Positions 5,048 through 58,859 are shown, counted from the first letter of the stretch. The stretch is 64,000 nucleotides of DNA from an uncultured Gemmatimonadaceae bacterium (GCA_963781585.1 CAWAGQ010000007.1:128001-192000), one strand, 5' to 3'. Notes: a model not told the origin generated them from the letters alone. Translations and numbers: made by a program.

Positions 5048-5134
5048 GGGGACGTCTCCGATAGTGGACGCGGCCCACAATGGCCCGATGACACCGGGCT
5101 TGTCAACGACGGTTGGTCCCGCCCGCGCAATGCA

Positions 5135-5310
5135 AACGAGATGGGCACAGAGACCAGCAGGAGCAGCGCCATGAGCGCCGCTTGCGGCTTGTGCACCGGT
5201 TTCAGCGGCTGGTAGAGCAGCAGAGCCAATGGAACCCCAAGCACCGCGGCGAGCACGTCGCTCACCACGCCGATTCGGAAGCGAAGATCAGGCCCCGTGA
5301 TCAGTTCGTC
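5135..5310 (-). pseudogene. Internal fragment of a DUF4386-like membrane protein
   Basis: FRIGVVSDVLAAVLGVPLALLLYQPLKPVHKPQAALMALLLLVSVPISF with no proper start or end. Confidence 0.45.
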
Positions 5311-5471
5311 ATCGCGATCTGATGTCCGGCTCGGCCCGCGCCGGCTGGCTGTCGCCTGAAACCGCGAGGCACGTGGTGAGCGTGCTCGATGACGCCTGTC
5401 CCGAGTTGGCTGCCTGGCGGCACCTTCCCCGCTGGCCGCCACCGTCCTGGAGGCGTACCTTCGGGATTGCC

Positions 5472-8215
5472 ATGAGTGATCGCCCCGGCTGTCTCGAGCC
5501 CTCGCCGGCCGCTACGACATCGAACGGCAGATCGGCGTCGGCGGGATGGCCACCGTGTATGTCGCCACCGACGTTCGCCACGGCCGGCGGGTGGCGCTCA
5601 AGGTGCTCCGGCCGGAGCTCGCGGCGGTCATCGGCGGTGACCGGTTCCTCGCCGAGATCCGGACCACCGCGGCACTGCAGCATCCGCACATTCTCCCGTT
5701 GCACGATTCCGGCGAAGCCGACGGCACGGTGTTCTACGTGATGCCGTACGTCGAGGGTGAATCGCTGCGCGACCGGATCAGCCACGAGAAGCAGTTGCCG
5801 GTCGAGGAGGCGGTGCGGATCGCGGGCCAGGTGGCCAGTGCCCTCGATTACGCGCATCGCCGCGGTGTCGTGCACCGCGACATCAAGCCGGAGAACGTGC
5901 TGCTGCAGGACGGGCAGGCGCTGGTGGCCGACTTCGGGATCGCGCTCGCCGTGAGTCGCTCCGATGGCGGAACGCGAATGACCGAGACCGGGATGTCGCT
6001 GGGGACGCCGCACTACATGGCGCCCGAGCAGGCGATGGGCGAGCGCGAAATCACGCCCAAGGCCGACGTCTACGCGCTCGGATGTGTGCTGTACGAGATG
6101 CTGACCGGTGAGCCGCCGTTCACCGGCGCGACGGCGCAGGCCGTTGTGGCGCGAGCAATGACCGAAGCGCCACGCAGCCTGACGACGCAGCGCCACACGA
6201 TTCCGCGGAATGTCGAGGCGGCGGTACATACGGCGCTGGAAAAGCTGCCGGCCGACCGGTTCGCGACCGCCGGCGAGTTCGCCGCCGCGCTCACGAATCC
6301 GTCCTACGGCGCCGTCGCGCCCGACGGCACGCCGGGCAAGAGCGCAGCACGCGGCGAAGGCGGATGGCGAAGCGCGGAGCTGCGCGCACGCCTGGCGCTG
6401 CCGCTTGCCGCGGTGGCGTTGGTGTCGCTTACCGCGCTGGCCTGGAGGTCGTTGCGGACAACGCCGCCCGAGCCGCCGCTGCGGATCGCCATGGCGTTCA
6501 ATCCGGCGCAGGCTCCGATCGCCGACCTGCCGTTCGTCATTTCGCCCGACGGCAAGGGGCTCCTGTACAGCGGCCCGGCGTCCGGGTCCTCCTGGCAGTA
6601 CTGGTACAAGGGTCCCGATCGATGGGACGCGGTGCCGCTGGCCGGTACCACCTCGGCTACGTTTTTCACGTTCTCGCCGGATGGGCAATCCGTTGCCTTC
6701 GTCTCGGCGACCGGGCAGGTGCGGACTGTTCCTGTTGGTGGCGGCGCGCCGACGACCGTGGCGGATTCGGCGACGGGTGGCATCGCGTGGCTGGACGACA
6801 ACACGATCGTCTTCGCATCCAACGGCGGGCGGGCACTCCGGCGAGTTGGCGCCGCCGGTGGCGCGGTCACCGAGCTGCTCGTCGGCGACTACGGGAACTA
6901 TGCCATCTCGCCGGTGGCGATTCCGGGCAGCCGCGGCATCGTGTTTGGGCATTGCCAGCCGGGATGTTCGGCGCTCGAGATCATGGCGCTCACGTTCGGT
7001 TCAAGGCAGCCGAAGCCGCTCGGCCTCCCCAACCCAGCCGGAGGGGCGATCAACTTCGCGCGATATGTGACGCCGGGATACCTGATGTATGGGCGGCCAG
7101 GTGGTGTTGTCGCCGCCGCGCCGTTCAGCGCCCGGACGCTCACCGTGACCGGGCCTGTGGTTCAGGTGCTCGACGCCATTGCCGGCGGGCAGGTCGGCCT
7201 GGAGTGGGACGTGTCCCTCAACGGGACGCTCGTCACGCGATCCGGGGTGGTGGCGTCGGCGCTCACTCAGTTCGAGGCCGTGTGGGTCGATCGCAGCGGG
7301 CGCCAGACGGCAATCGACTCCGCGTGGAAGTTCAGCACGATCAGCTTTGGTGCGAACGCGGGGTGGGCGCTCTCGCCGGACGGAACGCGGCTGGCGATCG
7401 GCCAGAACACCGATGCGGGCGACGACATCTGGGTGAAGCAGTTGCCGAGGGGCCCGCTCTCCCGGCTCTCGTTCGACAGTGCAGCCGACGTCCGCCCGAG
7501 ATGGTCCCGCGACGGCAAGACGATCTACTTCCTGTCGGGGCGCGGTGACGGTCGTCCCGCACTCTACTCGCGGCGCGCCGACGGTACGGGAAACGATTCG
7601 CTCGTCCTCAAGCTGCCCGCTCCCGGCATGATCTTCGAGGGGGCCGTGGCCCCTGATGGCAAAACGCTCGTCCTGCGTTCCGGCGGCACGGTCAACGTGG
7701 TCGGCGGTCGCGACATTTCCGTCATCCATCTCGGCGCCGATTCCGCGCCCAAGCCACTCATCGCGACGCAGTTCGACGAAGAAGCCATCGCTCTGTCGCC
7801 CGACGGAAAGCTGATCGCGTACGAGACGAACGAAACCGGTCGCACCGAGGTGTACCTGCGGCCGTTTCCCGACGTGGACGCGGGCAAGTGGCAGGTGAGC
7901 ACAAATGGTGGCGTGGCGCCGCTCTGGGCGCGCAGCGGCCGCGAGCTCTTCTTCGTCGACGGTACCCGCTCGATGGTCGTGGTGCCGGTCACGCCCGGGT
8001 CGGTGCCGCAGCTCGGAGATCGGAAGGTCCTGTTCCCGATGGGGCCGGAGCTCTACCTGGCCGACAAGGAGTTCTACACACCGTTCGACATCTCGCCCGA
8101 CGGTCAACGGTTCCTCATGGCCCGACAGGTCAACCGGGAGGAGCGACCCGTCGAGCCGATCGTCATGACGCAGCACTGGACGACGGAGCTGCTGCGCAAG
8201 GTGGGCAAGCGGTAG
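5472..8215 (+). CDS. Ser/Thr protein kinase + TM + TolB/PD40 beta-propeller; frameshift near the 5' end
   Basis: VALKVL, HRDIKPEN, DFG, GTPHYMAPE; ATG 5472 (MSD) is out of frame with RLSRALAGRYDIERQIGVGG-MATVY (ORF from 5546). Confidence 0.85.
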
Positions 8216-24018: not shown

Positions 24019-24142
24019 AGTTGTCGATTGTACGGTGCCCGCTTCTCTCGCGCTACCGTTCGCCGACGCGTTTCACGCTGCAGCCGCCGCGTCCGCGGGT
24101 CTGCCGAAAACCAGAGAGCGGTCGGGGACCGGCCGGGATTCC

Positions 24143-24183
24143 TGGAGCCATGCCGCGCCGTCGGCAGCGGCTCCTCGTTAGGC
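24143..24183 (-). other. Truncated attC (R'' side)
   Basis: ggagccatgccg...cggcagcggctcc tc GTTAGGC. Confidence 0.4.
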
Positions 24184-35942: not shown

Positions 35943-36037
35943 GCCGAACGAATGGGGTTGAGCTGCGAACGCTCAGTGTGAATGCGCCCGCGGAACGGGC
36001 GTTACCGACAGGTGCGGGTTCGTCTGCTCCAACCCGC
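35943..36037 (-). other. attC whose R'' box is replaced by an IS110-like end
   Basis: GCCGAAC..ggggttgagctgcgaac / gttcgtctgctccaaccc, then the 26-bp IS end. Confidence 0.7.
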
Positions 36038-36115
36038 CTCTGAGAGCCTAACGGTCAAGGGGCAATGGCTTCCCGCCGACTGATTGCTCAGTCGGTGGTG
36101 AATGTGGAACGACCG
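36035..36115 (-). mobile_element. IS110/IS1111-like right-end remnant
   Basis: 26 bp identical to 19602-19627 (CGCCTCTGAGAGCCTAACGGTCAAGG), followed by a related hairpin. Confidence 0.65.
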
Positions 36116-36117
36116 TG

Positions 36118-36188
36118 GCGCGCGCTGGCGCAGCCACAGCGCGCGCTTCCGAAAGCGTCTGCGCGGTCAGCTTCATGCTCCGTTAGAC
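36118..36188 (-). other. attC half (R'' side)
   Basis: gcgcgcgctggcgcagc..gcgcgcgcttcc..ggtcagcttcatgct..GTTAGAC, close in sequence to attC 54755-54865. Confidence 0.6.
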
Positions 36189-36962: not shown

Positions 36963-37055
36963 GCATAACGCCTGCGCTCACTTGCAAGGGCATCCCATCG
37001 TGCGCGCGAAGCGCGCCCACCGATGACCCTTGCCAAGTGCAGCGCTCTGTTATGC
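36963..37055 (-). other. attC site
   Basis: GCATAAC..gcgctcacttgcaaggg / cccttgccaagtgcagcgc..GTTATGC; higA stop lies inside R''. Confidence 0.9.
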
Positions 37056-37736: not shown

Positions 37737-37854
37737 GGATAACGGATTGCGCTTCTGCCGCGAGGCCAGGTGAGGCCGCCGCAGTCCTTAGATAAAGAAT
37801 ACTCCGCGGCGGCCGAACCGTTCTGGCCTCGTCGGCAGCAAGCGCGGGTTATGC
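37737..37854 (-). other. attC site
   Basis: GGATAAC..gcgcttctgccgcgaggccag / ctggcctcgtcggcagcaagcgc..GTTATGC. Confidence 0.88.
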
Positions 37855-42122: not shown

Positions 42123-42232
42123 GCCTAACGTCGCAATTCAGCTGCGGCGCATCACATAGAATGCGGCTGGCGGGCGCAGACCGCCAGACGCTACCGACCG
42201 AAAACGCCGACAGCTGCAATTGCTGGTTATAC
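42123..42232 (-). other. attC site
   Basis: GCCTAAC..gcaattcagctgcggcg / cgccgacagctgcaattgc..GTTATAC; brnA stop lies in R''. Confidence 0.92.
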
Positions 42233-42861: not shown

Positions 42862-42979
42862 GTATAACGTGCCGCTTCAGCCGCGGCGAATCGATAGAAG
42901 ACCGCGCGCTGGACGTGAGCGAAAGCGAACGCCTGCGCGCACACCATAGCTTCGCCGTCTGCTGCAACGTCTGTTAGGC
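42862..42979 (-). other. attC site
   Basis: GTATAAC..cttcagccgcggcgaa / ttcgccgtctgctgcaac..GTTAGGC. Confidence 0.9.
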
Positions 42980-44172: not shown

Positions 44173-44266
44173 GCCTAACGCCTAGCGTTCAGCTGCGCGG
44201 GCAGTCCAATCAAAGCGGCGAAGCCGCCACCATGGCGCCCGCGTCGGCTGCAACGCGTGGTTGAAC
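44173..44266 (-). other. attC site (host arms; R'' now supplied by the element end)
   Basis: GCCTAAC..gcgttcagctgcgcgggc / gcccgcgtcggctgcaacgc..GTT|GAAC. Confidence 0.9.
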
Positions 44267-44385
44267 TCAATCCGCCTTCGGCGTCTAGCACTGCGATTTC
44301 GGTGCGTGCCCTTACTCCACCGTGGCTGATGAAGTTGGCGGAGTGATGTCCAATGTTCACGCTGAACCCCTTCAGCGAGGACACC

Positions 44386-45258
44386 ATGACACCGCTCCGC
44401 CAACGCATGATCCAGGATCTCCAGCTCCGCGGCTACTCCGATCGCACCGTCGAAGCCTACGTCCGCTCCGTCGCTCAGCTGGCCCGCTTCTATCATGCCT
44501 CACCCGACACCCTCACGGAAGAGCAGCTCCGCGACTACCTCCTTCACCTCACCACCGTTCAGAAGGTCGCCCGGGGCACCCACACCATCGCCCTCTGCGG
44601 CCTCAAGTTCTTCTACCAGCACACGCTTGGGCGCGAGTGGATGGTCCTCAAGGTGGCCCGGCCCAAGGGGGAGAAGAAGCTCCCGGTCGTCCTGAGCCGC
44701 GGCGAGGTCTGGCAAATCCTGGATCATCTTCGACTTCCCGTCTACCGCGTCTGCCTGACGACCATCTACGCCTGCGGCCTCCGCCTCTTGGAGGGCGCCC
44801 GCCTCCAGGTCCCCGATGTCGATGGTGCCCGGAAGCTGCTCCACATTCACGGCAAGCGCCGCAAGGATCGCTACGTCCCGCTCCCGGACGCCACCCTCGC
44901 GCTGTTGCGAGAGCACTGGCGGACGCACCGTAATCCCCTCTGGCTCTTCCCCACGATCACCCGATCCCATGCCGGCGTCCTGAGCGACCCGGCCGTGGGC
45001 CCCATCTCCCGCGCCAGCCTTCAGAGCGCCTTCGTCCGTGCTGTCAGGGCCAGCGGTATCCACAAGCGCGCGCACGTCCACACGCTCCGGCACAGCTACG
45101 CCACGCACCTGCTGGAGGCCGGTGTCAATCTGCGATTGATCCAGGAGTATCTGGGCCACACCAGTCCCAGAACAACCGCCATCTACACCCACCTCACCCG
45201 GGAGCTCCACGACGCCGCGCTGAGTCCGATCAACGATCTCATGGCGCGTCGCTCTTGA
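44386..45258 (+). CDS. Tyrosine recombinase (Xer/phage integrase family, N-terminal SAM-like domain)
   Basis: GLRLLE, GKRRKDR, HTLRHSYATHLLE, LGH, TTAIY; no IntI-specific insertion. Confidence 0.93.
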   Translation: MTPLRQRMIQDLQLRGYSDRTVEAYVRSVAQLARFYHASPDTLTEEQLRDYLLHLTTVQKVARGTHTIALCGLKFFYQHTLGREWMVLKVARPKGEKKLPVVLSRGEVWQILDHLRLPVYRVCLTTIYACGLRLLEGARLQVPDVDGARKLLHIHGKRRKDRYVPLPDATLALLREHWRTHRNPLWLFPTITRSHAGVLSDPAVGPISRASLQSAFVRAVRASGIHKRAHVHTLRHSYATHLLEAGVNLRLIQEYLGHTSPRTTAIYTHLTRELHDAALSPINDLMARRS

Positions 45259-45305
45259 GTCGTTAGGCCCGTCGGTTCAGACAGCCACTGCCCCCGAGAC
45301 GGGCC

Positions 45306-46475
45306 GTGGTGGAGCTCGCGGACATCCTCCGCAGGGCGGGGCCCGAGTATCTGCGGACCCACGCCGGACCGCTCCTGCCCTCCCACCGGAGGGCCATGAA
45401 CGACATCGTCCAGTGTCGCACACCGGCCCTCGGTGGCTCGCTCTACCGCTGCGACGAGTGCGCTGCCCTCGCGTACCGCTACCACTCCTGCCGCAACCGC
45501 CACTGTCCCACGTGCCAGGACGATCGGGCCCAGAGATGGTTGGAGCGAGTCCGGCAGCGGCTTCTCCACACCGGCCACTACCTCCTCACGTTCACCCTCC
45601 CACAGGGGCTGCGGTCCGTCGCCCGATCGCACCAGCGCCTGGTATACGCCGCCCTTCTACGCGAAGCAGCTGCCACTGTCCTCACGCTCTGTAAGGACCC
45701 GAACTGGGTGGGCGGCACTCCCGCCATCCTCGCCGTACTCCACACCTGGTCGCGCACCCTGGAGCACCATCCCCACGTCCACCTCCTCGTCAGCGCCGGC
45801 GGCCTCGGCGCGGACGGCACGGCCTGGATCAAGCCCGCTCATTCTCGTTTCCTCGTCCCGGGCTACATGCTCTCCCCGATCTTCCGGGCGAAGATGCGCG
45901 ACGCGTTCGCACGAGCCGGCCTCGCCGGCGAGGTCGATCCCGGCGTGTGGACCCACCGCTGGACGGTCCACGTCAAGGCCATCGGCACCGGGCAGCACGC
46001 CGCACTCTATCTCTCCCGCTACATCTACCGCGTCGCCCTCACCAACCACCGCATCGAACGCTTCAGCAATGATCGCGTCACCTTCCGCTATACCCACGCA
46101 CGCACCGGGGAGACCCGGCGCCTGACGCTGCCGGTGAACACCTTCATCGGCCGTTTCCTCCAGCACGTCCTCCCCCGAGGCTTCACCAAGGTCCGCTCCT
46201 ATGGTCTCCTGAGCCCCGGCCGCCGCACGCAGCTGGAACGGGCCCGCGATCTCCTCGAGCTTCACGCTCGCGACGGCGTCCCGAAGTCCGCGAGCAACAT
46301 CCCGGCGCAGACTCCGGTCGCGCACGACCAGCCACCAACCGCGCCGGACCCCTGCTGCCCGGTCTGTCGGCGCGGTCGCCTCGTGGTCATCGACCACTTC
46401 ACCCGATCGCGCGCGCCGCCGGACTCGTGGTCCTCGCCGTGCTCCACCCCACCGACTGCCACAGTCGCCGCATGA
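45306..46475 (+). CDS. IS91-family (HUH/Y2) transposase with N-terminal Zn-binding domain
   Basis: CDEC...SCRNRHCPTCQ, HPHVH (HUH), YLSRY (Y2), RSYGLL. Confidence 0.93.
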   Translation: MVELADILRRAGPEYLRTHAGPLLPSHRRAMNDIVQCRTPALGGSLYRCDECAALAYRYHSCRNRHCPTCQDDRAQRWLERVRQRLLHTGHYLLTFTLPQGLRSVARSHQRLVYAALLREAAATVLTLCKDPNWVGGTPAILAVLHTWSRTLEHHPHVHLLVSAGGLGADGTAWIKPAHSRFLVPGYMLSPIFRAKMRDAFARAGLAGEVDPGVWTHRWTVHVKAIGTGQHAALYLSRYIYRVALTNHRIERFSNDRVTFRYTHARTGETRRLTLPVNTFIGRFLQHVLPRGFTKVRSYGLLSPGRRTQLERARDLLELHARDGVPKSASNIPAQTPVAHDQPPTAPDPCCPVCRRGRLVVIDHFTRSRAPPDSWSSPCSTPPTATVAA

Positions 46476-46688
46476 TCCGCGCGCGTGGTCCGGCGAAGCC
46501 GCGCCCCATGATCGCCGGAGCGCACGGCCAACGCTGCGCCGGCCTCAATCGCGCGCGGCTGGTCCGGTGCGCGGCCCCCGGTCTGGGCTCGGCAGGCCGC
46601 CTGACGCTCGCTTCGCTGGGCGTCCTGGACGTCGCCTCGGGTCACGCACCCGCCTGAAACTCCAAGGCCCTGCCGCGGGGCGGACTGA

Positions 46689-46746
46689 GTTCAACCCCAG
46701 ATTGTGCCGCGGCTATCGCGCGGCACGAATCTTTACTTCGTTAGGC
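46689..46746 (-). other. Element-borne attC-like hairpin completed by host R''
   Basis: GTTCAAC ccc AGATT-GTGCCGCG gctatcg CGCGGCACgAATCT ttacttc GTTAGGC; single bulged base. Confidence 0.8.
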
Positions 46747-46750
46747 AGCG

Positions 46751-46972
46751 TCACGCCGGACGTCGCGCGTCGCGAACCAGCGCGACGATCTCGTCCCGAG
46801 ACCACTTGAGGTTCAATCCCTTGACGTCCAGTGGCGAGCCGGTGCGCGCTTCCGGCTGCAACACAAACACCTGGCCGTCGCGCCGGCGAATCCGGACCGC
46901 GCCGTCGCGCCGCGCTCGCTCTAAGAGCGCGGCGAGCCGTTGGCGCGCCTCCGAGTACGTGTACTCCTTCAT
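46751..46972 (-). CDS. Phd/YefM-like antitoxin
   Basis: MKEYTYSEARQRLAALLERA...VRIRRRDG. Confidence 0.85.
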   Translation of the reverse strand: MKEYTYSEARQRLAALLERARRDGAVRIRRRDGQVFVLQPEARTGSPLDVKGLNLKWSRDEIVALVRDARRPA

Positions 46973-47367
46973 GTGGGTAGCTCCAGATGTTGGACCCCCG
47001 CCGCGTCTGCTGCGCGACCGAGCGCTTGATCCAGCGTGAGCAACGGCGCGCGCTGAGTGAGGGCGCACGTCACGAGGTAGGCGTCGTAGGCGTAGAGGCC
47101 ATGCTCAGCCGCGATCTCGAGCGCGAGCGCCAGGTCAACCTCCAAGAAGCGGATAGGAATACGTTCATAGGCCTCGAGCACCTGTTGCACCTCGCCCCGC
47201 GCGATCCGACGCCGTTTCAGCAAGGCCGATAGCGCATTGCCGACTTCCCAGTGGACGGAGGCTGGTGCCACCAGGTCGGCGCGCTGGGTTGCGCGGACGA
47301 GGCGGGGGCGTTCCGGTTCGCTCGTGAGGACGGCGATGAGCGCCGAGGTGTCGATGACAATGAGCAC
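46969..47367 (-). CDS. vapC: PIN-domain (VapC) toxin
   Basis: VIDTSALIA, EVGNAL, YDAYL, LLTLD; lies upstream of its antitoxin. Confidence 0.88.
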   Translation of the reverse strand: MLIVIDTSALIAVLTSEPERPRLVRATQRADLVAPASVHWEVGNALSALLKRRRIARGEVQQVLEAYERIPIRFLEVDLALALEIAAEHGLYAYDAYLVTCALTQRAPLLTLDQALGRAADAAGVQHLELPT

Positions 47368-47375
47368 TACATAAC

Positions 47376-47387
47376 GTACAATTGTAC
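47376..47387. promoter_or_regulatory. Probable TA autoregulatory operator
   Basis: Perfect palindrome GTACAATTGTAC 9 bp upstream of the vapC start. Confidence 0.55.
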
Positions 47388-47435
47388 AAGCGCCTGCGCA
47401 ACCCCGACGGCATGCACGCCACTCGCCTCATCGCT

Positions 47436-47546
47436 GCCTAACGCCCGCAATTCTGCTGCGGCGCGATCACAACAATGCGGCTGGCGAATGGAATGAGCCA
47501 GCCGCGCACCGCATTATGCGCCGACAGCAGCAATTGCTCGTTGTGC
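47436..47546 (-). other. attC site
   Basis: GCCTAAC..gcaattctgctgcggcgc / gcgccgacagcagcaattgc..GTTGTGC. Confidence 0.9.
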
Positions 47547-47549
47547 CGC

Positions 47550-47819
47550 GCGGCGTAGAAGAAGCGGAACCACCAGGGCGTCGCGCTCGCGGCGCCGGCA
47601 TGGACACCGGTCTGTCCACCCTCCGCAAAGTGCACATCGGAGAGCGCGTCAGCGAACGCTTTCGCGGACTCGAAGCGATCGGCGGGGAGTTCTCAAGTGG
47701 CGGTCGTGCTTGAGGTCCTGGGCGAGGTAGACGGTGGTCATGCCGCCCTGACCGAGTTATTCCTCGATCCTGCAGCGGCCGGCAAGAGCGGCGTTGAGCC
47801 GTTCGGTATTGTTTCTCAT
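47550..47819 (-). pseudogene. Third tandem Ser/Thr kinase, collapsed (internal stop plus large deletions)
   Basis: MRNNTERLNAALAGRCRIEE*LGQGGMTTVYLAQDLKHDR joined to PADRFESAKAFADAL; ATGA overlap with the upstream kinase stop. Confidence 0.85.
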
Positions 47820-50463
47820 TTTGCTGCTCCGGTCACGTTCTCGAACACCACAACGCGATCTGGCAACACCCGGCCCAGCTCTCGATGAAACACGAAACGT
47901 TGGTCGTCAGCTGCAAGGCTGTATTCGACCACAAGGGATAGCGAGCGAAACCGCTCCGCTGAAAACAGGACGTGTGGTCTATCGAACACGAATGTCGGCC
48001 CGGGCGTCAGCGGCACGCTCACCATGTTGGCGTTGCCGTCGCGGAAGAACAGCTCGCGGCCACTGTGACTCCACACTGGGTCCGACCCGCCGTCCGGCGA
48101 CACCAGCCAATTGCCGTCGCTCGTGTTCGGGAAGGGCCGCACCCGGACCTGCGCCCGGCCGGTTTCGAGCGTGGTGTACGCCAACCAGCGCCCGTCCGGC
48201 GAGACCGCCGGTTGCGATTCCTGGTACGGCGTGACCACCAGCGGGACTCGCGTGGTGTCACCGGTGCGGCGCACGCCGATCAGGTCGGAGGAGCCGCCAC
48301 CACCGTTGCGATACACGATCCAGCGATTGTCCGCGGTGAAAAAGACTTCGTGCACCTGCTCCGGATCGTAGAGCAGGGGTCGCTCGGGCTCCGACGCATC
48401 GGCGCGACGGATGTACGCCTCGCGCTTGCCGGCGCGATCCGCCATGTAGGCGACGGAGGTTCCGTCAGGTGTCCATTGCGGCCGGATGCCGCCATTGAAG
48501 CTCAACTGCGTCATCCGCCCGTTGTCCAGTTGCCGCACCCACACCTGCCCGCCGCGTGTTACCGCGAGCCGGCGACCATCGGGTGAGAGCTTGAAGGCGC
48601 CGTTCGGTGTCAGCTGGTCGTTCCAGCCGGGGTCCACCGGGCGGACCACGCCTTGTCGCGTGACCCAGACGACGTCAGTGGTGTCGTGAGCGTCGCTTTC
48701 CGCCATGTAGATCAGCGTGCCTTGCGACGACGTGGTGAAGTCGGGAACGAAGTCAGGCGCGCCCACTGACCCGAATACGACGCGCTCGACAAGCATCCGT
48801 GGCTCACCGGACAAACGCAGGTTGCGGGCGTCAAACGACTGGATCATCAGCGCACCGTTGCGCTCGGGCGCAAACACCAGGTATCCCGGCACATACTCGG
48901 CGTACGATCCGCGGGTCAGCACACGGTACTTGCCGGTGGCCTGGTCGGCGATGGCGATCTCAGAGCGCGCCGCATTCGCCCGATACTTGATGACGAAGAG
49001 GATGCCACGCCCGTCGGGCAGCGCGCACGGAAAGACGTGGTCGTCCTCGCCCGCCGCCGAGTCCACCGTGGTGAAGCGAACCGGCGTGCCGCCCTGCGCG
49101 GACACCTTCACGATGCCGGTGCGGCCGGAACCGTGAGCGTAGATGAACCCATCGGACGACCACGTCGCGCCGGCGTAGCCAATCCCGGTCGTGGCCACCG
49201 GAACCACAGGTCCGCCGTCCAATGGCACGACCTTGATGGTGCCGCGCGGACTCACGAAGCCGATCTTCGCGTTGTCGGGCGAGAAAAACGGAACTTCGGC
49301 ACCCTCCGTACCGGCGATCTCGACCGGCGACAACTGGTCGCGTGGCAGGACGAACAGCCGCCGCTCACCGCCCGCACCCTCGTGCAGGTACGCCAGGCGT
49401 GAGCCGTCCGGCGACAGTGCGATGCGGCGGAACCAGGCGCTCACCTCCCGCCCCTCAGGAAGTTGGAGCATGTACCGTCGCACGGGCGACTCCGGCGACG
49501 CACGTGTCCCACGCCAGCCCCACGCCGCCAGCGCTAGCGCGACGACGCCAACGGCGGCCACGGCAACGAACACGGGGTCGCGGAACCTGCCCAGGGCGGA
49601 TGCGGGCTGCACGCGCGTGGTTCCCGCTGCGGTGAATGCCGGGTTGACCAGGGCATCGGCAAACGCCTTGGCGGAGTCGAAGCGATCGGCCGGCACCTTC
49701 TCGAGCGCCTTGCGCAGTGCGTCGGCGACGTTGGGTGGCACCGACTTGCGGTGCTGCGTCACATCGCCGGCCGGCTCGGCGATGATCTTCATGATGATCT
49801 GCTGCGCGCTGCCACCCAGGTGCGGCGGCTGGCCAGCGAGCATCTCGTAGAGCACCGATGCCAGCGAGTAAATGTCGCTGCGACCGGTGATCTCCTTCTC
49901 CGCAGTGGCTTGCTCGGGCGACATGTAGTGCGGCGTGCCGAGCGAGAGGCCGGTCTCGGTCATGCGTCCGCCGGCGGCGGCAGAGACAGCGAGCGCAATG
50001 CCGAAGTCGGCCACCATGGGGCGACCGTCGTGGAGCAGGATGTTCTCGGGCTTGATGTCGCGGTGGATGACGCCGTGGCGGTGGGCGTAGTCCAGCGCGT
50101 CAGCGACCTGCGTGGTGATGCGAACGGCTTCGTCGACGCCGAGTTGTGTTTCGCGATCGAGTTTCCCGCGCAGGGTCTCCCCTTCTATATATGGCATCAC
50201 GTAGTACAGGAATCCGTCCGCGGTGCCGGAGTCGAAGAGCGGCAGGATGTGCGGGTGCTGGAGCGCGGCGGTGGTCTTGATCTCCACGACGAACCGTTCC
50301 GCGCCGAGCACGGCGGCGAGCTCGGGCTTCAGGACTTTGACGGCGACCTTGCGGTCGTGCTTGAGGTCGGCGGCGAGGTAGACGGTGGCCATGCCGCCCT
50401 GACCGAGCTGCTTCTCGATCTTGTAGCGACCCGCGAGTGCCGCGTTGAGGCGCTCGGTGCCGC

Positions 50464-50467
<4 letters not shown>
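47816..50467 (-). CDS. Ser/Thr protein kinase + TM + TolB/PD40 beta-propeller
   Basis: LGQGGMATVY, HRDIKPEN, DFG, SPE; SPDG repeats. Confidence 0.95.
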
Positions 50468-53094
<2,627 letters not shown>

Positions 53095-53278
53095 TGGGCG
53101 CTAGTGCAGCCGGCGGTCGGGCTCGGCACGATTGCAATATGGCGCTGGGCGGCCCGCCCAGCGAGCGATCCTGAATTCGACGAAGGGCGCGAAGGATAGT
53201 GGCGCCATCCTTGCTCTTGCCCGTTCAGCTGCGGCTATTCACCAAACGCAGCGAGAGGCTCGATGCCGGATGACGTCG

Positions 53279-53386
53279 GCACAACGGACTGGCAATAAGC
53301 TGCGGTGCAGTTCAACCGTTGGTCGCCGTGTCGCAACACGGCGGCCTTCCAGAGCCTGCGCCGGCTGCTTCATTGCCTTGTTAGGC
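53279..53386 (-). other. attC site
   Basis: GCACAAC..ggcaataagctgcgg / ccggctgcttcattgcc..GTTAGGC; hicB stop lies in R''. Confidence 0.88.
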
Positions 53387-53596
53387 AGCCACCACCACAT
53401 AGGTGGCAATCGTCTGCCCCGCCGGAACCGGCGCCCCATCCTCGCGGAGGCCGTCAAGATGGAGCAGAATCGCTTCGCGCATGTTCGCCTCCACGTCGGT
53501 TCGCGAAGCGCCCGTCGCCACACAGCCGGGAAGGTCGGGCGAATAGGCGGAAAACCCCGTGCTCGTTGGCTCGAGTACGATCAGGTAACGATGCAT
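53381..53596 (-). CDS. hicB: HicB antitoxin (short form)
   Basis: FSAYSPDLPGCVATG...NMREAILLHLDGL. Confidence 0.9.
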   Translation of the reverse strand: MHRYLIVLEPTSTGFSAYSPDLPGCVATGASRTDVEANMREAILLHLDGLREDGAPVPAGQTIATYVVVAA

Positions 53597-53600
53597 GGTC

Positions 53601-53801
53601 CTATGCTCCTGGCGGCGGCTTGAGCCCGGCCTGTTTCAGAATGCTGCCCAGCGTGCCCGGAGCCAGGTCGTCGTTGGACGATCCGGCCACCGTCACGCGG
53701 CCCGGCTTCGTGGGATGCTTGAATTGTTGATGACTCCCCTTCGTGCGGGCAAGGTACCAGCCGTCTTCCAGCAGGAGTCGGAGCACGTCACGAACTTTCA
53801 T
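53601..53801 (-). CDS. hicA: HicA toxin
   Basis: DGWYLARTKGSHQQFKHPTKPGRVTV...GTLGSILKQAGL. Confidence 0.92.
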   Translation of the reverse strand: MKVRDVLRLLLEDGWYLARTKGSHQQFKHPTKPGRVTVAGSSNDDLAPGTLGSILKQAGLKPPPGA

Positions 53802-53918
53802 CAGGGCAACAACTTACGCGTCACCCATCCCGGTGGCCAGTCTTCCGTCGAAGCATACTCGCGGGGCCCGACCGGGTCCCGAGCACAGCCACAAGATGGC
53901 CCGATATTGGGCGGGTCT

Positions 53919-53950
53919 GTCTAAGGCCCAGCGTTCAAGGCGAGTTAGGC
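53919..53950 (-). other. Collapsed attC (internal deletion)
   Basis: gtctaag gcccagcgtt caaggcga GTTAGGC between two cassette genes; R'' is complementary to the cassette core (gtcgccgcctaac / gttaggcggcgac). Confidence 0.6.
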
Positions 53951-53991
53951 GGCGACGATTCCGGTGCCTCGCGGACGCCCCGCCAATGGCA

Positions 53992-54597
53992 TCAGTCGAA
54001 GCGAACCGCTTGGAGCTTGTAGGTGTGCCCGGACGCCAGGATGACAATCGTATCCGCGGCCATTGTTGCGGGCACGGCATGGCCCGACGCGTCCATCAGG
54101 AGGAGCGCGTCGCGCGTCCAGGAGTACGTTCCCGATGACACCGTGACGTCCAGCGTCCGCGCTGAGTCACCTGGGAAGTCGACGCGCTGGGTAAGCACCA
54201 GAGTATACCCTCCCACACGGCAGGGAATCATCAGGTACGCGACTGTGTCCCCCACAGTCACCAACCCGTTCAAATGCAGAACCGCTCCGTTGGGAATCTC
54301 GGTCACACAGGCTCCGGACATGGGCCCCGCGGGCGTGAAGACGGTATCCGAATAGTGCGCGTAGCGCTGGAACGTCAGCGTGCCGGAGAGGATGCTAACC
54401 CGGGCACCTGCCGAGTCGACGGTGCAGCAGGGAACCGTCGCCGCATCGACCGTTCGGAGCGAATCGAGGGCCACGACGGAACCGAGGTCCACGGTAACGG
54501 ACGCGAGGTCCGAGGCGACGGAGGTGGGCGATTCGCACGCGCCCGCCAGCAGAGCGGCAGCGGATAGAGCAACCAGGATAGAAAGTGGTCGGCGCAT
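53992..54597 (-). CDS. Hypothetical lipoprotein (cassette)
   Basis: MRRPLSILVALSAAALLAGAC lipobox. Confidence 0.75.
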   Translation of the reverse strand: MRRPLSILVALSAAALLAGACESPTSVASDLASVTVDLGSVVALDSLRTVDAATVPCCTVDSAGARVSILSGTLTFQRYAHYSDTVFTPAGPMSGACVTEIPNGAVLHLNGLVTVGDTVAYLMIPCRVGGYTLVLTQRVDFPGDSARTLDVTVSSGTYSWTRDALLLMDASGHAVPATMAADTIVILASGHTYKLQAVRFD

Positions 54598-54754
54598 GGC
54601 TCGGGCTCCATCGAGACTGTTCTGTAGTATCGACCCCAAGCCAGCGGCTCGGTATCCGCTTATCCCCGACGGGGGGTCGAGCCTTGACCGACCGAGGGCT
54701 GTGGTGACGAAGTGACAACATCACCAGCGTCCGCACGCGCCAGCGGAAGTCGCC

Positions 54755-54865
54755 GCCTAACGCTCCAGCATAAGCTGCCCCGCATCCAACAATCGCGCGC
54801 GCTGGCGCAGCACAGCGCGCGCTTCCTTCAGAGTATGCGGGGTCAGCTTCATGCTGTTGTTGAAC
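54755..54865 (-). other. attC site (host arms; R'' now supplied by the element end)
   Basis: GCCTAAC..cagcataagctgccccgcat / atgcggggtcagcttcatgctg..GTT|GAAC. Confidence 0.9.
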
Positions 54866-54984
54866 TCAATCCGCCTTCGGCGTCTAGCACTGCGATTTCG
54901 GTGCGTGCCCTTACTCCACCGTGGCTGATGAAGTTGGCGGAGTGATGTCCAATGTTCACGCTGAACCCCTTCAGCGAGGACACC

Positions 54985-55857
54985 ATGACACCGCTCCGCC
55001 AACGCATGATCCAGGATCTCCAGCTCCGCGGCTACTCCGATCGCACCGTCGAAGCCTACGTCCGCTCCGTCGCTCAGCTGGCCCGCTTCTATCATGCCTC
55101 ACCCGACACCCTCACGGAAGAGCAGCTCCGCGACTACCTCCTTCACCTCACCACCGTTCAGAAGGTCGCCCGGGGCACCCACACCATCGCCCTCTGCGGC
55201 CTCAAGTTCTTCTACCAGCACACGCTTGGGCGCGAGTGGATGGTCCTCAAGGTGGCCCGGCCCAAGGGGGAGAAGAAGCTCCCGGTCGTCCTGAGCCGCG
55301 GCGAGGTCTGGCAAATCCTGGATCATCTTCGACTTCCCGTCTACCGCGTCTGCCTGACGACCATCTACGCCTGCGGCCTCCGCCTCTTGGAGGGCGCCCG
55401 CCTCCAGGTCCCCGATGTCGATGGTGCCCGGAAGCTGCTCCACATTCACGGCAAGCGCCGCAAGGATCGCTACGTCCCGCTCCCGGACGCCACCCTCGCG
55501 CTGTTGCGAGAGCACTGGCGGACGCACCGTAATCCCCTCTGGCTCTTCCCCACGATCACCCGATCCCATGCCGGCGTCCTGAGCGACCCGGCCGTGGGCC
55601 CCATCTCCCGCGCCAGCCTTCAGAGCGCCTTCGTCCGTGCTGTCAGGGCCAGCGGTATCCACAAGCGCGCGCACGTCCACACGCTCCGGCACAGCTACGC
55701 CACGCACCTGCTGGAGGCCGGTGTCAATCTGCGATTGATCCAGGAGTATCTGGGCCACACCAGTCCCAGAACAACCGCCATCTACACCCACCTCACCCGG
55801 GAGCTCCACGACGCCGCGCTGAGTCCGATCAACGATCTCATGGCGCGTCGCTCTTGA
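54985..55857 (+). CDS. Tyrosine recombinase (copy 2)
   Basis: Translation identical to 44386-45258. Confidence 0.93.
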   Translation: MTPLRQRMIQDLQLRGYSDRTVEAYVRSVAQLARFYHASPDTLTEEQLRDYLLHLTTVQKVARGTHTIALCGLKFFYQHTLGREWMVLKVARPKGEKKLPVVLSRGEVWQILDHLRLPVYRVCLTTIYACGLRLLEGARLQVPDVDGARKLLHIHGKRRKDRYVPLPDATLALLREHWRTHRNPLWLFPTITRSHAGVLSDPAVGPISRASLQSAFVRAVRASGIHKRAHVHTLRHSYATHLLEAGVNLRLIQEYLGHTSPRTTAIYTHLTRELHDAALSPINDLMARRS

Positions 55858-55904
55858 GTCGTTAGGCCCGTCGGTTCAGACAGCCACTGCCCCCGAGACG
55901 GGCC

Positions 55905-57074
55905 GTGGTGGAGCTCGCGGACATCCTCCGCAGGGCGGGGCCCGAGTATCTGCGGACCCACGCCGGACCGCTCCTGCCCTCCCACCGGAGGGCCATGAAC
56001 GACATCGTCCAGTGTCGCACACCGGCCCTCGGTGGCTCGCTCTACCGCTGCGACGAGTGCGCTGCCCTCGCGTACCGCTACCACTCCTGCCGCAACCGCC
56101 ACTGTCCCACGTGCCAGGACGATCGGGCCCAGAGATGGTTGGAGCGAGTCCGGCAGCGGCTTCTCCACACCGGCCACTACCTCCTCACGTTCACCCTCCC
56201 ACAGGGGCTGCGGTCCGTCGCCCGATCGCACCAGCGCCTGGTATACGCCGCCCTTCTACGCGAAGCAGCTGCCACTGTCCTCACGCTCTGTAAGGACCCG
56301 AACTGGGTGGGCGGCACTCCCGCCATCCTCGCCGTACTCCACACCTGGTCGCGCACCCTGGAGCACCATCCCCACGTCCACCTCCTCGTCAGCGCCGGCG
56401 GCCTCGGCGCGGACGGCACGGCCTGGATCAAGCCCGCTCATTCTCGTTTCCTCGTCCCGGGCTACATGCTCTCCCCGATCTTCCGGGCGAAGATGCGCGA
56501 CGCGTTCGCACGAGCCGGCCTCGCCGGCGAGGTCGATCCCGGCGTGTGGACCCACCGCTGGACGGTCCACGTCAAGGCCATCGGCACCGGGCAGCACGCC
56601 GCACTCTATCTCTCCCGCTACATCTACCGCGTCGCCCTCACCAACCACCGCATCGAACGCTTCAGCAATGATCGCGTCACCTTCCGCTATACCCACGCAC
56701 GCACCGGGGAGACCCGGCGCCTGACGCTGCCGGTGAACACCTTCATCGGCCGTTTCCTCCAGCACGTCCTCCCCCGAGGCTTCACCAAGGTCCGCTCCTA
56801 TGGTCTCCTGAGCCCCGGCCGCCGCACGCAGCTGGAACGGGCCCGCGATCTCCTCGAGCTTCACGCTCGCGACGGCGTCCCGAAGTCCGCGAGCAACATC
56901 CCGGCGCAGACTCCGGTCGCGCACGACCAGCCACCAACCGCGCCGGACCCCTGCTGCCCGGTCTGTCGGCGCGGTCGCCTCGTGGTCATCGACCACTTCA
57001 CCCGATCGCGCGCGCCGCCGGACTCGTGGTCCTCGCCGTGCTCCACCCCACCGACTGCCACAGTCGCCGCATGA
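55905..57074 (+). CDS. IS91-family HUH/Y2 transposase (copy 2)
   Basis: Translation identical to 45306-46475. Confidence 0.93.
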   Translation: MVELADILRRAGPEYLRTHAGPLLPSHRRAMNDIVQCRTPALGGSLYRCDECAALAYRYHSCRNRHCPTCQDDRAQRWLERVRQRLLHTGHYLLTFTLPQGLRSVARSHQRLVYAALLREAAATVLTLCKDPNWVGGTPAILAVLHTWSRTLEHHPHVHLLVSAGGLGADGTAWIKPAHSRFLVPGYMLSPIFRAKMRDAFARAGLAGEVDPGVWTHRWTVHVKAIGTGQHAALYLSRYIYRVALTNHRIERFSNDRVTFRYTHARTGETRRLTLPVNTFIGRFLQHVLPRGFTKVRSYGLLSPGRRTQLERARDLLELHARDGVPKSASNIPAQTPVAHDQPPTAPDPCCPVCRRGRLVVIDHFTRSRAPPDSWSSPCSTPPTATVAA

Positions 57075-57287
57075 TCCGCGCGCGTGGTCCGGCGAAGCCG
57101 CGCCCCATGATCGCCGGAGCGCACGGCCAACGCTGCGCCGGCCTCAATCGCGCGCGGCTGGTCCGGTGCGCGGCCCCCGGTCTGGGCTCGGCAGGCCGCC
57201 TGACGCTCGCTTCGCTGGGCGTCCTGGACGTCGCCTCGGGTCACGCACCCGCCTGAAACTCCAAGGCCCTGCCGCGGGGCGGACTGA

Positions 57288-57345
57288 GTTCAACCCCAGA
57301 TTGTGCCGCGGCTATCGCGCGGCACGAATCTTTACTTCGTTAGAC
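57288..57345 (-). other. Element-borne attC-like hairpin completed by host R'' GTCTAAC
   Basis: Same hairpin as 46689-46742, ending in GTTAGAC. Confidence 0.8.
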
Positions 57346-57753
57346 ACCGTGCGCCGCGCGTCCGCGCATGCGCCACGCCGTCGCGGCCAGCCGTCGAATG
57401 AGATCCACTGCAATCCCGAACGCCACGAGCGCGGCTACCATGAGTGGCCAGCCGCTCACCTGCCGGGTGCCAAGGAGCAGCGCAGTGACGCCCAGCCAGA
57501 GCAGCGCGGCTCGCCAGAGTGCGCGCCGATCGCGTGGAAGCGCCAGCCAGGTCGCACCCAGCAGCAGCACGGCGGTGCCGACGCTGTAGCCGGCAGTGAC
57601 GGCGGCGGCGTGAGGGTCGGCGATCGGTGCCACTGGACCCGGTGCGCGCGCGACGCTCACCCCGACGATCGCCACGAACGCAGCGGTAACGAGCCACACC
57701 GCGGTGAGGACGCTGAGCGTCACGATGCGAAGCCATGGAGGAACCACACTCAT
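57340..57753 (-). CDS. First cassette: 4-TM membrane protein
   Basis: MSVVPPWLRIV...; stop inside R''; cassette ends gtgtctaac / gttagacac are complementary. Confidence 0.75.
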   Translation of the reverse strand: MSVVPPWLRIVTLSVLTAVWLVTAAFVAIVGVSVARAPGPVAPIADPHAAAVTAGYSVGTAVLLLGATWLALPRDRRALWRAALLWLGVTALLLGTRQVSGWPLMVAALVAFGIAVDLIRRLAATAWRMRGRAAHGV

Positions 57754-57782
57754 CGCGCAATGCGTTTCGGTGTTCCGCGTGT

Positions 57783-57850
57783 GTCTAACAAATATTGGAC
57801 CCTCATCCCCATCCCCGTCACCCGTTCCCATACGACCCATACGTTACCCC
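57783..57850 (-). other. Putative attI site
   Basis: Minus strand GGTCCAA-TATTT-GTTAGAC (L box, 5-bp spacer, core) with no attC hairpin; short direct repeats (CGTATGGG x2, GGGGATG x2) upstream. Confidence 0.75.
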
Positions 57851-57857
57851 AAGCCGC

Positions 57858-58859
57858 CTAATCCGACAATCCTGGTCCACTCAGTAACCGATCCACCGGG
57901 CTCTGAACGCCAAGCCTGCCGCGATTCAGAACGTGCGTGTAGATCATCGTCGTCGACACATCACGATGTCCCAGCAATTCCTGCACAGTGCGAATGTCGT
58001 AACCGGCTTCGAGCAGGTGCGTCGCAAATGAGTGCCGCAAGGTGTGACAGCTCGCCCGTTTCCCGATCCCACTGGCGCGCACTGCCCTCGCCATTGCACG
58101 CTGAATTGCGGTCTCATGATAATGATGCCGGCGGGTCGTGCCGGTCTCGCGCTGCTGATAGCGGCGCCGCGCGGGAAAGACCCATTGCCACGCCCATTCC
58201 GTCGCGGCGTTCGGGTACTTCCGGACCAAGGCGTCCGGAAGGTCCACCGCACCGCCGCCCACTGCCAGATCGCTGGCGTGCAGTGCCCGCACGCGCTCAA
58301 GGTGCTCGCGCAATAATGGTACCGCGTGAGTGGGCAGCATCGTGACGCGGTCACGCGCCCCCTTTCCGCGACGCACCCGGATTTCTCCGCGGTCGAGGTC
58401 CAGGTCTTTCACCCGCAGCGTCAGGCACTCCATCAGCCGCAGCCCGCTTCCATAGAGAAGCATTCCTACCAGGCGCGGCACGCCATCGAGCATGCGCAGC
58501 ACGCATCGTACCTCTCTTTCGCTGAGAACCACGGGTAACCGGTGCGGGGCCCGAGCCTTCGGCACATCGCCGAGGCCGTCGAGTGGCCGATCGAGCACGT
58601 GCTTGTAGAGGAACTGCAACGCGGCGAGTGCCTGTGCCTGCGTGGCCGCGGACAGCTTGCGCTCGACCGCCAGCGCGGTGAGGAACTGCACGACCTCACG
58701 TTCGCCCAAATCCTTCGGATGACGGAGGCCGTGGAACTTGACGAAGCGCCGCGCCCAACCGACATACGCCTGTTCCGTTCGCGGGCTGAAATGGCCGAGC
58801 CGCAGATTCGCGCGCAAGGAATGCAGTAGTTTCGATTTGGGCTGCACGAGGTCCCCCAC
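57858..58859 (-). CDS. intI: Integron integrase
   Basis: [20 protein letters not shown], IntI-specific insertion [10 protein letters not shown]...[40 protein letters not shown]. Confidence 0.97.

Follow-up and report, generated by a model that had tools for sequence, protein, structure and literature searches.

An IS91-family element with an upstream tyrosine recombinase located at the R'' box of integron attC sites

We analyzed a window of 64,000 nucleotides from the genome of an uncultured Gemmatimonadaceae bacterium (GCA_963781585.1 CAWAGQ010000007.1:128001-192000; coordinates count from the first letter of this stretch). The window contains two copies of a mobile element that encodes a tyrosine recombinase and an HUH-Y2 transposase of the IS91 family, and each copy interrupts an attC recombination site of an integron cassette array. 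The components of the element and the two interrupted sites are the following.

44260..46742, + strand: element copy 1; the identical block extends to 46744, with a 100% match to copies 2 and 3
54859..57341, + strand: element copy 2, which splits the attC of the attI-proximal cassette; the identical block extends to 57343
44353..45258 (copy 2: 54952-55857), + strand: tyrosine recombinase, 301 amino acids (PF00589, 115.4 bits; PF13495, 81.4 bits)
45306..46475 (copy 2: 55905-57074), + strand: IS91-family HUH-Y2 transposase, 389 amino acids (NF033538, 353.1 bits against a cut-off of 125)
44263..44292 (copy 2: 54862-54891), + strand: left, terIS-like end; it opens with GAAC (GTTC when read on the bottom strand), and next comes a short palindrome, degenerate in this copy
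46682..46742 (copy 2: 57281-57341), + strand: right, oriIS-like end, consisting of a repeat, 4 nucleotides, a GC-rich hairpin, 8 nucleotides and GTT
44173..44262, + strand: bottom strand of target attC 1, spanning GCCTAAC (the R' complement) through the GTT of R''; the other 4 nucleotides of R'' are at 46743-46746
54755..54861, + strand: target attC 2, bottom strand, delineated by its fold; the other 4 nucleotides of R'' are at 57342-57345

The initial annotation described a 2480-bp unit present twice, with a tyrosine recombinase gene and an HUH/Y2 transposase gene. Segments 44260-46744 and 54859-57343 are identical over all 2485 bases (offset 10599), with divergence beginning right outside; because the identical block opens with GTT and closes with GTTAG, the unit with one GTT comprises 2480 bases. 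A third copy, also 100% identical, resides on the minus strand of another contig (G000:C13:307514-309998) of the assembly, which consists of 17 contigs and 5.7 Mb. All three copies are flanked by ...N5 GTT|GAAC... on the left and by ...CTTC GTT|AG... on the right. Because this draft assembly has an estimated contamination of 7.19%, an assembly or annotation artefact, or a chance overlap of a repeat with hairpins, was considered; we regard it as negligibly probable, given that the three identical copies have distinct flanks and lie on long contigs, and that the same junction rule recurs in independent genomes, metagenomes and finished plasmids, with motif and model statistics far beyond chance (see below).

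The transposase matches PF04986 (153.7 bits) and PF14319, the N-terminal zinc-binding domain (95.1 bits), and its translation contains the HUH motif HHPHVH and a tyrosine pair in YLSRYIY, that is, the combination of an HUH-Y2 transposase with an N-terminal zinc-binding domain by which the IS91 family is recognized. The recombinase gene is located directly upstream of the transposase gene and co-oriented with it, as in the ISAzo26-like subgroup of this family, and at 16 of 18 loci encoding related recombinases (46-84% identical), an IS91 transposase directly follows. Profile scores, catalytic motifs and these related loci thus bear out the two-gene composition of the element, and the exact repeat bears out its duplication. 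The unit is an intact and recently active IS91-family insertion sequence of the ISAzo26-like subgroup, with an upstream tyrosine recombinase.

Among the NCBIfam models, the closest to the recombinase is TIGR02249, the model of the integron integrase IntI, which it matches in two stretches with 201.5 bits, short of the cut-off of 265. It is 35% identical to the IntI encoded in the window, with a gap of ~30 residues opposite the IntI-specific insert, and the catalytic R, HxxR, H and Y of IntI all have aligned counterparts. With a score under the cut-off and the IntI-specific additional domain missing, the protein falls outside IntI proper. In a phylogenetic tree in which the outgroup consisted of only two Xer sequences, both long-branched, the element recombinase groups with IntI, apart from the two Xer-like proteins of this genome (support 100/99). 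The recombinases of the attC-associated elements form one group of 13 rows (95/99), to which the ISAzo26 and Mesorhizobium copies are sister. The genome encodes seven tyrosine recombinases, one of which is an IntI.

No Rfam family reached the gathering score in the window, so that no ready attC model was available and a dedicated covariance model (R1) was built. It has 79 positions and 20 pairs and was derived from 16 uninterrupted attCs, in bottom-strand orientation, from the flanks of related loci and from the window, where the attCs at 53279 and 47436 served as seeds. An earlier scan for attC by regular expression and folding was too strict and found few sites. On the covariance model, the hybrids at the left junctions score 53.3 bits (44173-44266) and 48.5 bits (54755-54865), and every match in the window at E<=0.03 is on the + strand. 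Copy 3 sits in a small cluster of attCs without an integrase, with matches of 53.3, 32.5 and 26 bits on the strand that corresponds to the plus strand of the element. When the flanks were rejoined by script for all three copies, hairpins closed by RYYYAAC/GTTRRRY were obtained. The exact break at the GTT/AAC triplet of R'', as initially reported for two copies, is accordingly found in 3/3 copies by both folding and model matches, and the hairpin folds and scores also support the view that the two targets in the window are alike in structure rather than in arm sequence. Two bulges on the 3' arm are a hallmark of the attC bottom strand. In target attC 2, there are 0 single-base bulges on the 5' arm and 2 on the 3' arm; in target attC 1, the two nearest the R box are on the 3' arm, with an overall tie of 2:2 (two 5'-arm bulges lie near the apex). 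Insertion at the AAC/GTT of R'' makes the coding strand of the element an extension of the attC bottom strand and sets the element genes in antisense to the cassettes.

The integron into which the two copies are inserted comprises the following features.

57858..58859, - strand: integron integrase gene intI (TIGR02249, 434.7 bits against a cut-off of 265)
~57783-57857: attI region, downstream of the intI stop
57342..57789, - strand: cassette bearing copy 2 in its attC; a small hydrophobic open reading frame with its stop codon inside the R'' box
46743..47442, - strand: cassette bearing copy 1 in its attC; a PIN-domain gene and a Phd/YefM antitoxin gene
53279-53386, 47436-47546, 42862-42979 and 42123-42232, bottom strand on +: other uninterrupted attCs (covariance-model matches)
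37737-37854, 36963-37055, 35943-36188 and 24070-24183, bottom strand on +: further uninterrupted attCs (covariance-model matches)

The open reading frames of the cassettes are on the minus strand; they start shortly after R' (GTTRRRY) and stop within or beside R'' (RYYYAAC). This places the array on the minus strand and, as had been proposed, in antisense to the element genes, which are on the + strand. The first cassette begins at G|TTAGACAC (57789-57781), ~70 nucleotides past the intI stop. Complementarity between each R'' and the core of its own cassette, also part of the initial annotation, is evident at both sites. The core GTTAGGCAGC is present at 46740-46749 (+) and at 47433-47442 (-), where the core of the copy-1 cassette (47442-47433) pairs with its own R''; GTTAGACAC is present at 57339-57347 (+) and 57781-57789 (-), with 2 matches found against 0.11 expected.

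Several other properties of this array were observed. The integrase gene and its cassettes share the same orientation (window 57783-58859), the 'inverted intI' layout. Co-orientation of intI with its cassettes is known and less common. Toxin-antitoxin cassettes are represented by the PIN and Phd/YefM pair (46751-47367) and by a HicA/HicB-like pair (~53400-53800), the latter read from the sequence. The region between two attCs at 47643-53094 contains two tandem genes of ~880 amino acids whose products are Ser/Thr protein kinases with PD40 beta-propeller repeats, as well as the remnant of a third N-terminus, a cargo unusually large for a cassette array.

Relatives of the recombinase were collected broadly: at least 7999 proteins were found at E<=1e-20 among 8000 candidates scored, a set that also includes IntI and Xer relatives. 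Among the 120 matches listed, the relatives are 78-100% identical, and the few with source names come from Gemmatimonadota. The loci examined include 29 from species genomes (nine of these are plain IntI genes), 80 metagenomic loci, five copies in one related genome, and plasmid copies; the named hosts include Gemmatimonadota, Acidobacteriota, Rokubacteriota, Smithellaceae, Vibrionaceae and E. coli. From these loci, 72 non-redundant left flanks of at least 100 nucleotides each were compiled. Across elements, the length is ~2.3-2.65 kb.

A full-length attC match ends exactly at the left junction in 39/72 flanks at E<=0.01 and in 46/72 at E<=1, compared with ~0.2 expected by chance if the 113 matches were placed randomly. 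All 46 attC-associated insertions (46/46) are at R'' and antisense; among the 72 flanks, no model match fits a sense configuration at R', and cassette-type insertions at R' or attI, along the array, were not seen among the attC-associated ones. The expectation, raised in the initial annotation, that homologues would lie at the AAC of R'' hence stands as a rule (39/72 at E<=0.01) and fails as an exclusive one, given that 26/72 flanks are without an attC match. The neighboring attCs show the same polarity: at E<=0.01, 16 non-seed attCs are on the + strand of the element and 0 on the minus strand, and of the 14 seeds derived from related loci, 12 are plus and 2 minus, both of the latter from one locus (L072). 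Folds of 38 reconstructed sites were compared for single-base bulges past the central spacer, which are more numerous on the 3' arm in 21 and on the 5' arm in 4, with 4 ties and 9 sites without bulges. Two other scores preceded the covariance model. The constrained minimum free energy of AAC...GTT hairpins, compared with 2440 other host GTT sites, reached p<=0.05 in 12/44 cases, performed poorly in GC-rich DNA and was discarded; an anchored inverted-repeat score reached p<=0.05 at 19/44 sites and, for left flanks alone, at 29/72, before being replaced by the covariance model.

The rule also holds in a class 1 integron. In an IncC plasmid of E. coli (NZ_LT985243.1; L165), a relative at locus 4825-7230 occupies the attC downstream of aadA1, between this gene and qacEdelta1/sul1. 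As a control, the class 1 integron yielded attC matches of 45.8, 42.1, 41.5 and 24.4 bits, all four opposite to the annotated cassette genes, which identifies the model strand as the attC bottom strand. The 42.1-bit match ends at the left junction of the element, and the right flank runs into the 3' end of aadA1; this relative, too, is therefore at R'' and antisense. Insertion at R'' is site- and orientation-specific, and we are highly confident in the element identity and the R'' target rule taken together.

These geometries bear directly on one alternative, namely, that the host IntI moves the element passively as a cassette, with the terminal hairpin serving as attC and the antisense orientation resulting from rare top-strand recombination. 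The boundaries of the element are consistent with G|TT and its left end GTTGAAC with GTTRRRY, the right end yields weak full-length matches to the attC model, and one relative (L006, 2731-3870) occupies the place of a first cassette, ~180 nucleotides from the start of a divergent intI and in sense orientation, in an AT-rich, attI-like region with repeated CAGTATA words; its contig ends within the element, and its right flank is missing. IntI, however, works the other way round, at R' rather than at R'' and antisense, and 0 of the 46 attC insertions have the IntI geometry, which makes passive movement unlikely. Moreover, copy 3 is in an attC cluster without an integrase in a genome with a single intI, some relatives are at non-attC sites and on rhizobial plasmids, and two conserved mobility genes would be pointless cargo. 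We consider passive movement by IntI very improbable.

The ends of the element combine features of IS91 and of attC. The terminal inverted repeat consists of the first 14 bases including GTT. In left ends generally, the triplet precedes GAAC or GGAC, after which comes a short palindrome; on the bottom strand, this gives palindrome-GTTC, and the left end of this element reads ...palindrome-GA-GTTC on that strand. The same palindrome-GTTC layout of terIS is found in IS801 and IS1294, according to PMC13181058. At the right end, a subterminal inverted repeat (46682-46695) is the complement of the left end, and the GC-rich hairpin has one bulged G. Across elements, the subterminal repeat matches the left end at 10-14 of 14 positions in 54/56 cases and is located 41-49 nucleotides before the tip in 45/56, farther where the loop is longer; it is followed by 3-4 nucleotides, a GC-rich hairpin, 7-9 nucleotides and the triplet. 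Lineage-specific changes are paired at both ends (GTTGAAC/GTTCAAC, GTTGGAC/GTCCAAC, ATTGAAC/..TTCAAT). Thus, two distinct ends with subterminal palindromes and the terIS tetranucleotide GTTC, as in IS91, are present; a GTTC/CTTG target tetranucleotide (with T at position 2) abutting oriIS is not. Instead, the base after the right triplet is A in 44/54 cases, and the flank mostly continues from A with GGC, GAC or TGC, giving RYYT before AAC on the bottom strand.

In layout, the right end resembles an attC, with an inner stem and a spacer enclosed by outer arms that are complementary to the start of the element itself. On the attC model, full-length matches are obtained at 46689-46746 (19.9 bits, E=0.013) and 57288-57345 (18.5 bits), with E values of ~0.01-0.03 for the pair. 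A bona fide attC at the right end was considered and rejected, because the scores are weak and confined to one lineage, and we call this end attC-like in layout only. Among 56 sites, the junction triplets are GTT/GTT in 52, ATT/ATT in 2, GTT/GAT in 1 and ATT/GTT in 1; the double GTT may result from duplication of 3 bp, from a crossover triplet common to both partners, or from one copy of the host and one of the element. Insertion amounts to a trade of the DNA 3' of GTT between the host attC and the element hairpin, which would be the expected outcome of a reciprocal exchange between two like sites.

The explanation that we favor assigns a role to both proteins. By analogy with IS91, for which such copying has been demonstrated experimentally and where the bottom single-stranded circle is the sole inserted form (PMC13181058), the HUH-Y2 transposase would copy out the bottom strand as a single-stranded circle, from the right (oriIS) to the left (terIS, GTTC) end. 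In the circle, the left end would pair with the right-end subterminal repeat, producing an attC-like hairpin in which an unpaired spacer separates the R-box duplex from the inner stem, and the circle junction would fall at the AAC on the 5' arm of this hairpin. The IntI-like recombinase would then swap one strand between the circle hairpin and the equivalent AAC of the folded attC top strand, in a mirror image of the IntI reaction, which takes place on the bottom strand at R'. The product would be resolved by replication. We assign this explanation as a whole (element, target rule and proposed mechanism) a probability of roughly 55%.

IntI reads extrahelical bases through its insert. The recombinase is favored as the pasting enzyme because donor and target are alike in layout and in the crossover triplet, because the gene pair persists, its catalytic residues intact, across widely differing levels of identity, and because an IntI-like enzyme without the insert that reads extrahelical bases could plausibly make a different strand choice. 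The bottom strand, however, reads ...AAC both before the right end (in the host) and at the left end, and three cleavage registers fit alike: RYYY|AAC, which is IS91-like as GTTC itself is an RYYY; AA|C, which is IntI-like; and AAC|. The sequence can therefore not tell insertion by the HUH transposase from insertion by the recombinase. That the recombinase rather than the transposase makes the final joint is, accordingly, a tentative assignment, with the odds leaning slightly against it, and a strict division of labor, in which the HUH protein only copies out the circle and the IntI-like recombinase pastes the folded hairpin into the top-strand fold of attC, is doubtful.

Alternatively, the HUH-Y2 transposase might insert the element alone, as in IS91, by cutting terIS (GTTC|AAC or ..CAAC|) and a like motif in a single-stranded target; attC would be hit since RYYY|AAC or YAAC| is exposed at the foot of the hairpin, and the recombinase would resolve tandems or cointegrates, act as a regulator like Orf121 of IS91, or provide a second, cassette-like route. 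IS91 requires only TnpA, generates no target duplication and recognizes a tetranucleotide next to oriIS; its terIS ends at a tetranucleotide, in several members the terIS cleavage tetranucleotide is the same as that of the target, and the ends carry subterminal palindromes (PMC13181058). In the present element, the left end is GTTC beside a palindrome on the bottom strand, the right end contains a palindrome, and an identical AAC follows both junctions on the bottom strand. Other observations resemble rolling-circle read-through. Two loci (L074, 2624; L129, ~3330) contain head-to-tail tandem copies with a single GTT between them, which is compatible with rolling-circle transposition without proving it, and copies 1 and 3 have in common an 87-nucleotide attC body on the terIS side, left of the element (44173-44259; G000:C13:309999-310085; 100% identity). 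This body is absent elsewhere in the assembly, and the DNA past R' and past the right junction differs between the two copies; possible sources are terIS read-through, two hits into identical attCs, or a later IntI exchange at R'. A composite cassette moved by IntI was rejected as the source, because its product should be without the right-end hairpin, whereas copy 3 has it. Furthermore, the ISAzo26/Mesorhizobium clade has the recombinase and no attC targeting. Against insertion by the transposase alone, the candidate target tetranucleotide (RYYT, bottom strand) is not conserved and is without the T at position 2 of IS91 targets. The gene pair is retained with intact catalytic residues from 40% to 100% identity across phyla, which argues for an essential role of the recombinase, and donor and target have the same hairpin layout and crossover triplet, as do partner sites of site-specific recombinases. 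Insertion by the transposase alone is the main rival, a genuine possibility that we judge less likely than not.

Other rearrangements were noted among the relatives. One contig (L065) has two copies in adjacent attC sites (787, 4070), and at three loci (L012, L034, L120), the right end carries short re-duplications finishing in GTT.

Several observations weigh against the two-protein mechanism or against attC as the general target. IS91 transposes with its transposase alone, so that the recombinase may be dispensable for insertion (PMC13181058), and the paired changes at both ends would also be expected if one protein bound both repeats. The element hairpin scores only 14-22 bits, compared with 35-65 for true attCs, and does so only in Gemmatimonadota-type elements (7 loci beyond the window); in the Smithellaceae, Vibrionaceae and E. 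coli copies, the attC model did not detect it. A consistent bulged base in this hairpin was tried as an argument for strand choice and dropped, as the arm that carries it varies between lineages. The affinity of the recombinase to IntI comes from the tree with the two long-branched Xer sequences as its outgroup. Among the 26 flanks without a match, some are attCs missed by the model (long or of the Smithellaceae type), and four more reach p<=0.1 by the inverted-repeat score; three (L013, L101, L038) are clearly not attC. One locus (L072) is an exception in which the neighboring attCs have the other orientation and the element's own site is without an attC match. Two Chloroflexota copies have ATT triplets. 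Finally, the ISAzo26/Mesorhizobium clade shares both genes and the end layout but is found outside attC sites.

Integrons are the principal means of gene capture underlying multi-resistance in Gram-negative bacteria, and attC is the textbook example of a folded single-strand recombination site. We know of only two kinds of described attC parasites, the IS1111-attC elements and the group IIC-attC introns. A third, combining a rolling-circle transposase with an integrase-like recombinase, would give the catalogued 'IS91 plus integrase' elements a target and a role for their second gene, and its recombinase would offer a natural contrast for bottom-strand selection by IntI. There are also consequences for annotation: the copies split attCs and can be mistaken for additional integrases within arrays, and at least one clinical class 1 integron contains such an element. 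Should the division of labor described above hold, each insertion would make two attC-like sites from one attC and could carry attC stems along, as in copies 1 and 3; this recombinase clade would be the closest living relative of integron integrases and a natural experiment on how IntI came to choose its strand, and might hint that integron integrases, together with cassette-like hairpins, arose from, or gave rise to, such transposons.

Among known systems, the closest is ISAzo26, an IS91 element with an upstream recombinase that matches in gene pair and gene order, measures ~2.4-2.6 kb and has ends of the same layout, with a left end GTTGGAC and a paired subterminal GTCCAAC. In NC_006824.1, an 'IS91-like element ISAzo26 family transposase' is annotated by PGAP directly after a tyrosine recombinase, in agreement with the remark in the initial annotation that such pairs are catalogued. 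The ISAzo26 and Mesorhizobium copies differ in being outside attC, and their recombinases, ~40% identical, are sister to the attC-associated clade. ISAzo26, ISShvi3 and others are listed in ISfinder as IS91 elements with an upstream tyrosine recombinase. The nearest statement on attC is that of PMC9229058, where ISShvi3 of a Shewanella integron is described as 'adjacent to an attC site'. The full-text literature search, which did not extend to ISfinder, TnPedia or subscription journals, yielded no paper stating that IS91-type elements target attC or assigning a role to the recombinase. The two-gene IS91 subgroup is already catalogued, and parasites specific to attC are known as well.

The Mesorhizobium copies were observed on plasmid NZ_CP080530.1 (L133-L137), which carries four identical copies of a distant relative with a recombinase ~42% identical to that of the element, none of them in attC. 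Three of the four have a common left flank and start without the bases that normally open the left end; one copy adjoins a gene for a group II intron reverse transcriptase.

Like canonical IS91, IS801 and IS1294, the element has an HUH-Y2 transposase, distinct ends with subterminal palindromes and GTTC at terIS on the bottom strand, and oriIS borders on a short target motif of constant sequence; target duplication is not clearly evident, the GTT at both junctions being a possible one of 3 bp. Unlike canonical IS91, it has the extra recombinase gene, its oriIS flank is the R'' box of a hairpin site rather than GTTC/CTTG, and its left end is repeated, inverted, ~44 nucleotides inside the right end.

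The IS1111-attC elements of the IS110 family are likewise insertion sequences that home to attC in a fixed orientation; the group was reportedly described by Tetu and Holmes in 2008 and by Post and Hall in 2009. They differ in having a DEDD transposase, in being guided by a bridge RNA and in using another position in attC, and neither protein of the present element belongs to that family by Pfam. Group IIC-attC introns act on the folded bottom strand close to R''. Like the element, they are found in attC, opposite to the cassettes (PMC9229058), and the same source mentions the invasion of attC by IS1111-attC elements. The introns differ in consisting of a ribozyme and a reverse transcriptase, neither of which was found here with Rfam and Pfam; the Pfam matches on the element were limited to Phage_integrase and Y2_Tnp/Zn_Tnp_IS91, which places it in neither of these groups. 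Integron cassettes, finally, resemble the element in being bounded by GTT and in ending in a hairpin whose outer arms pair with their own start, whereas the element carries two genes, lies antisense and at R'' rather than R', and has a hairpin that is weakly attC-like (14-22 bits).

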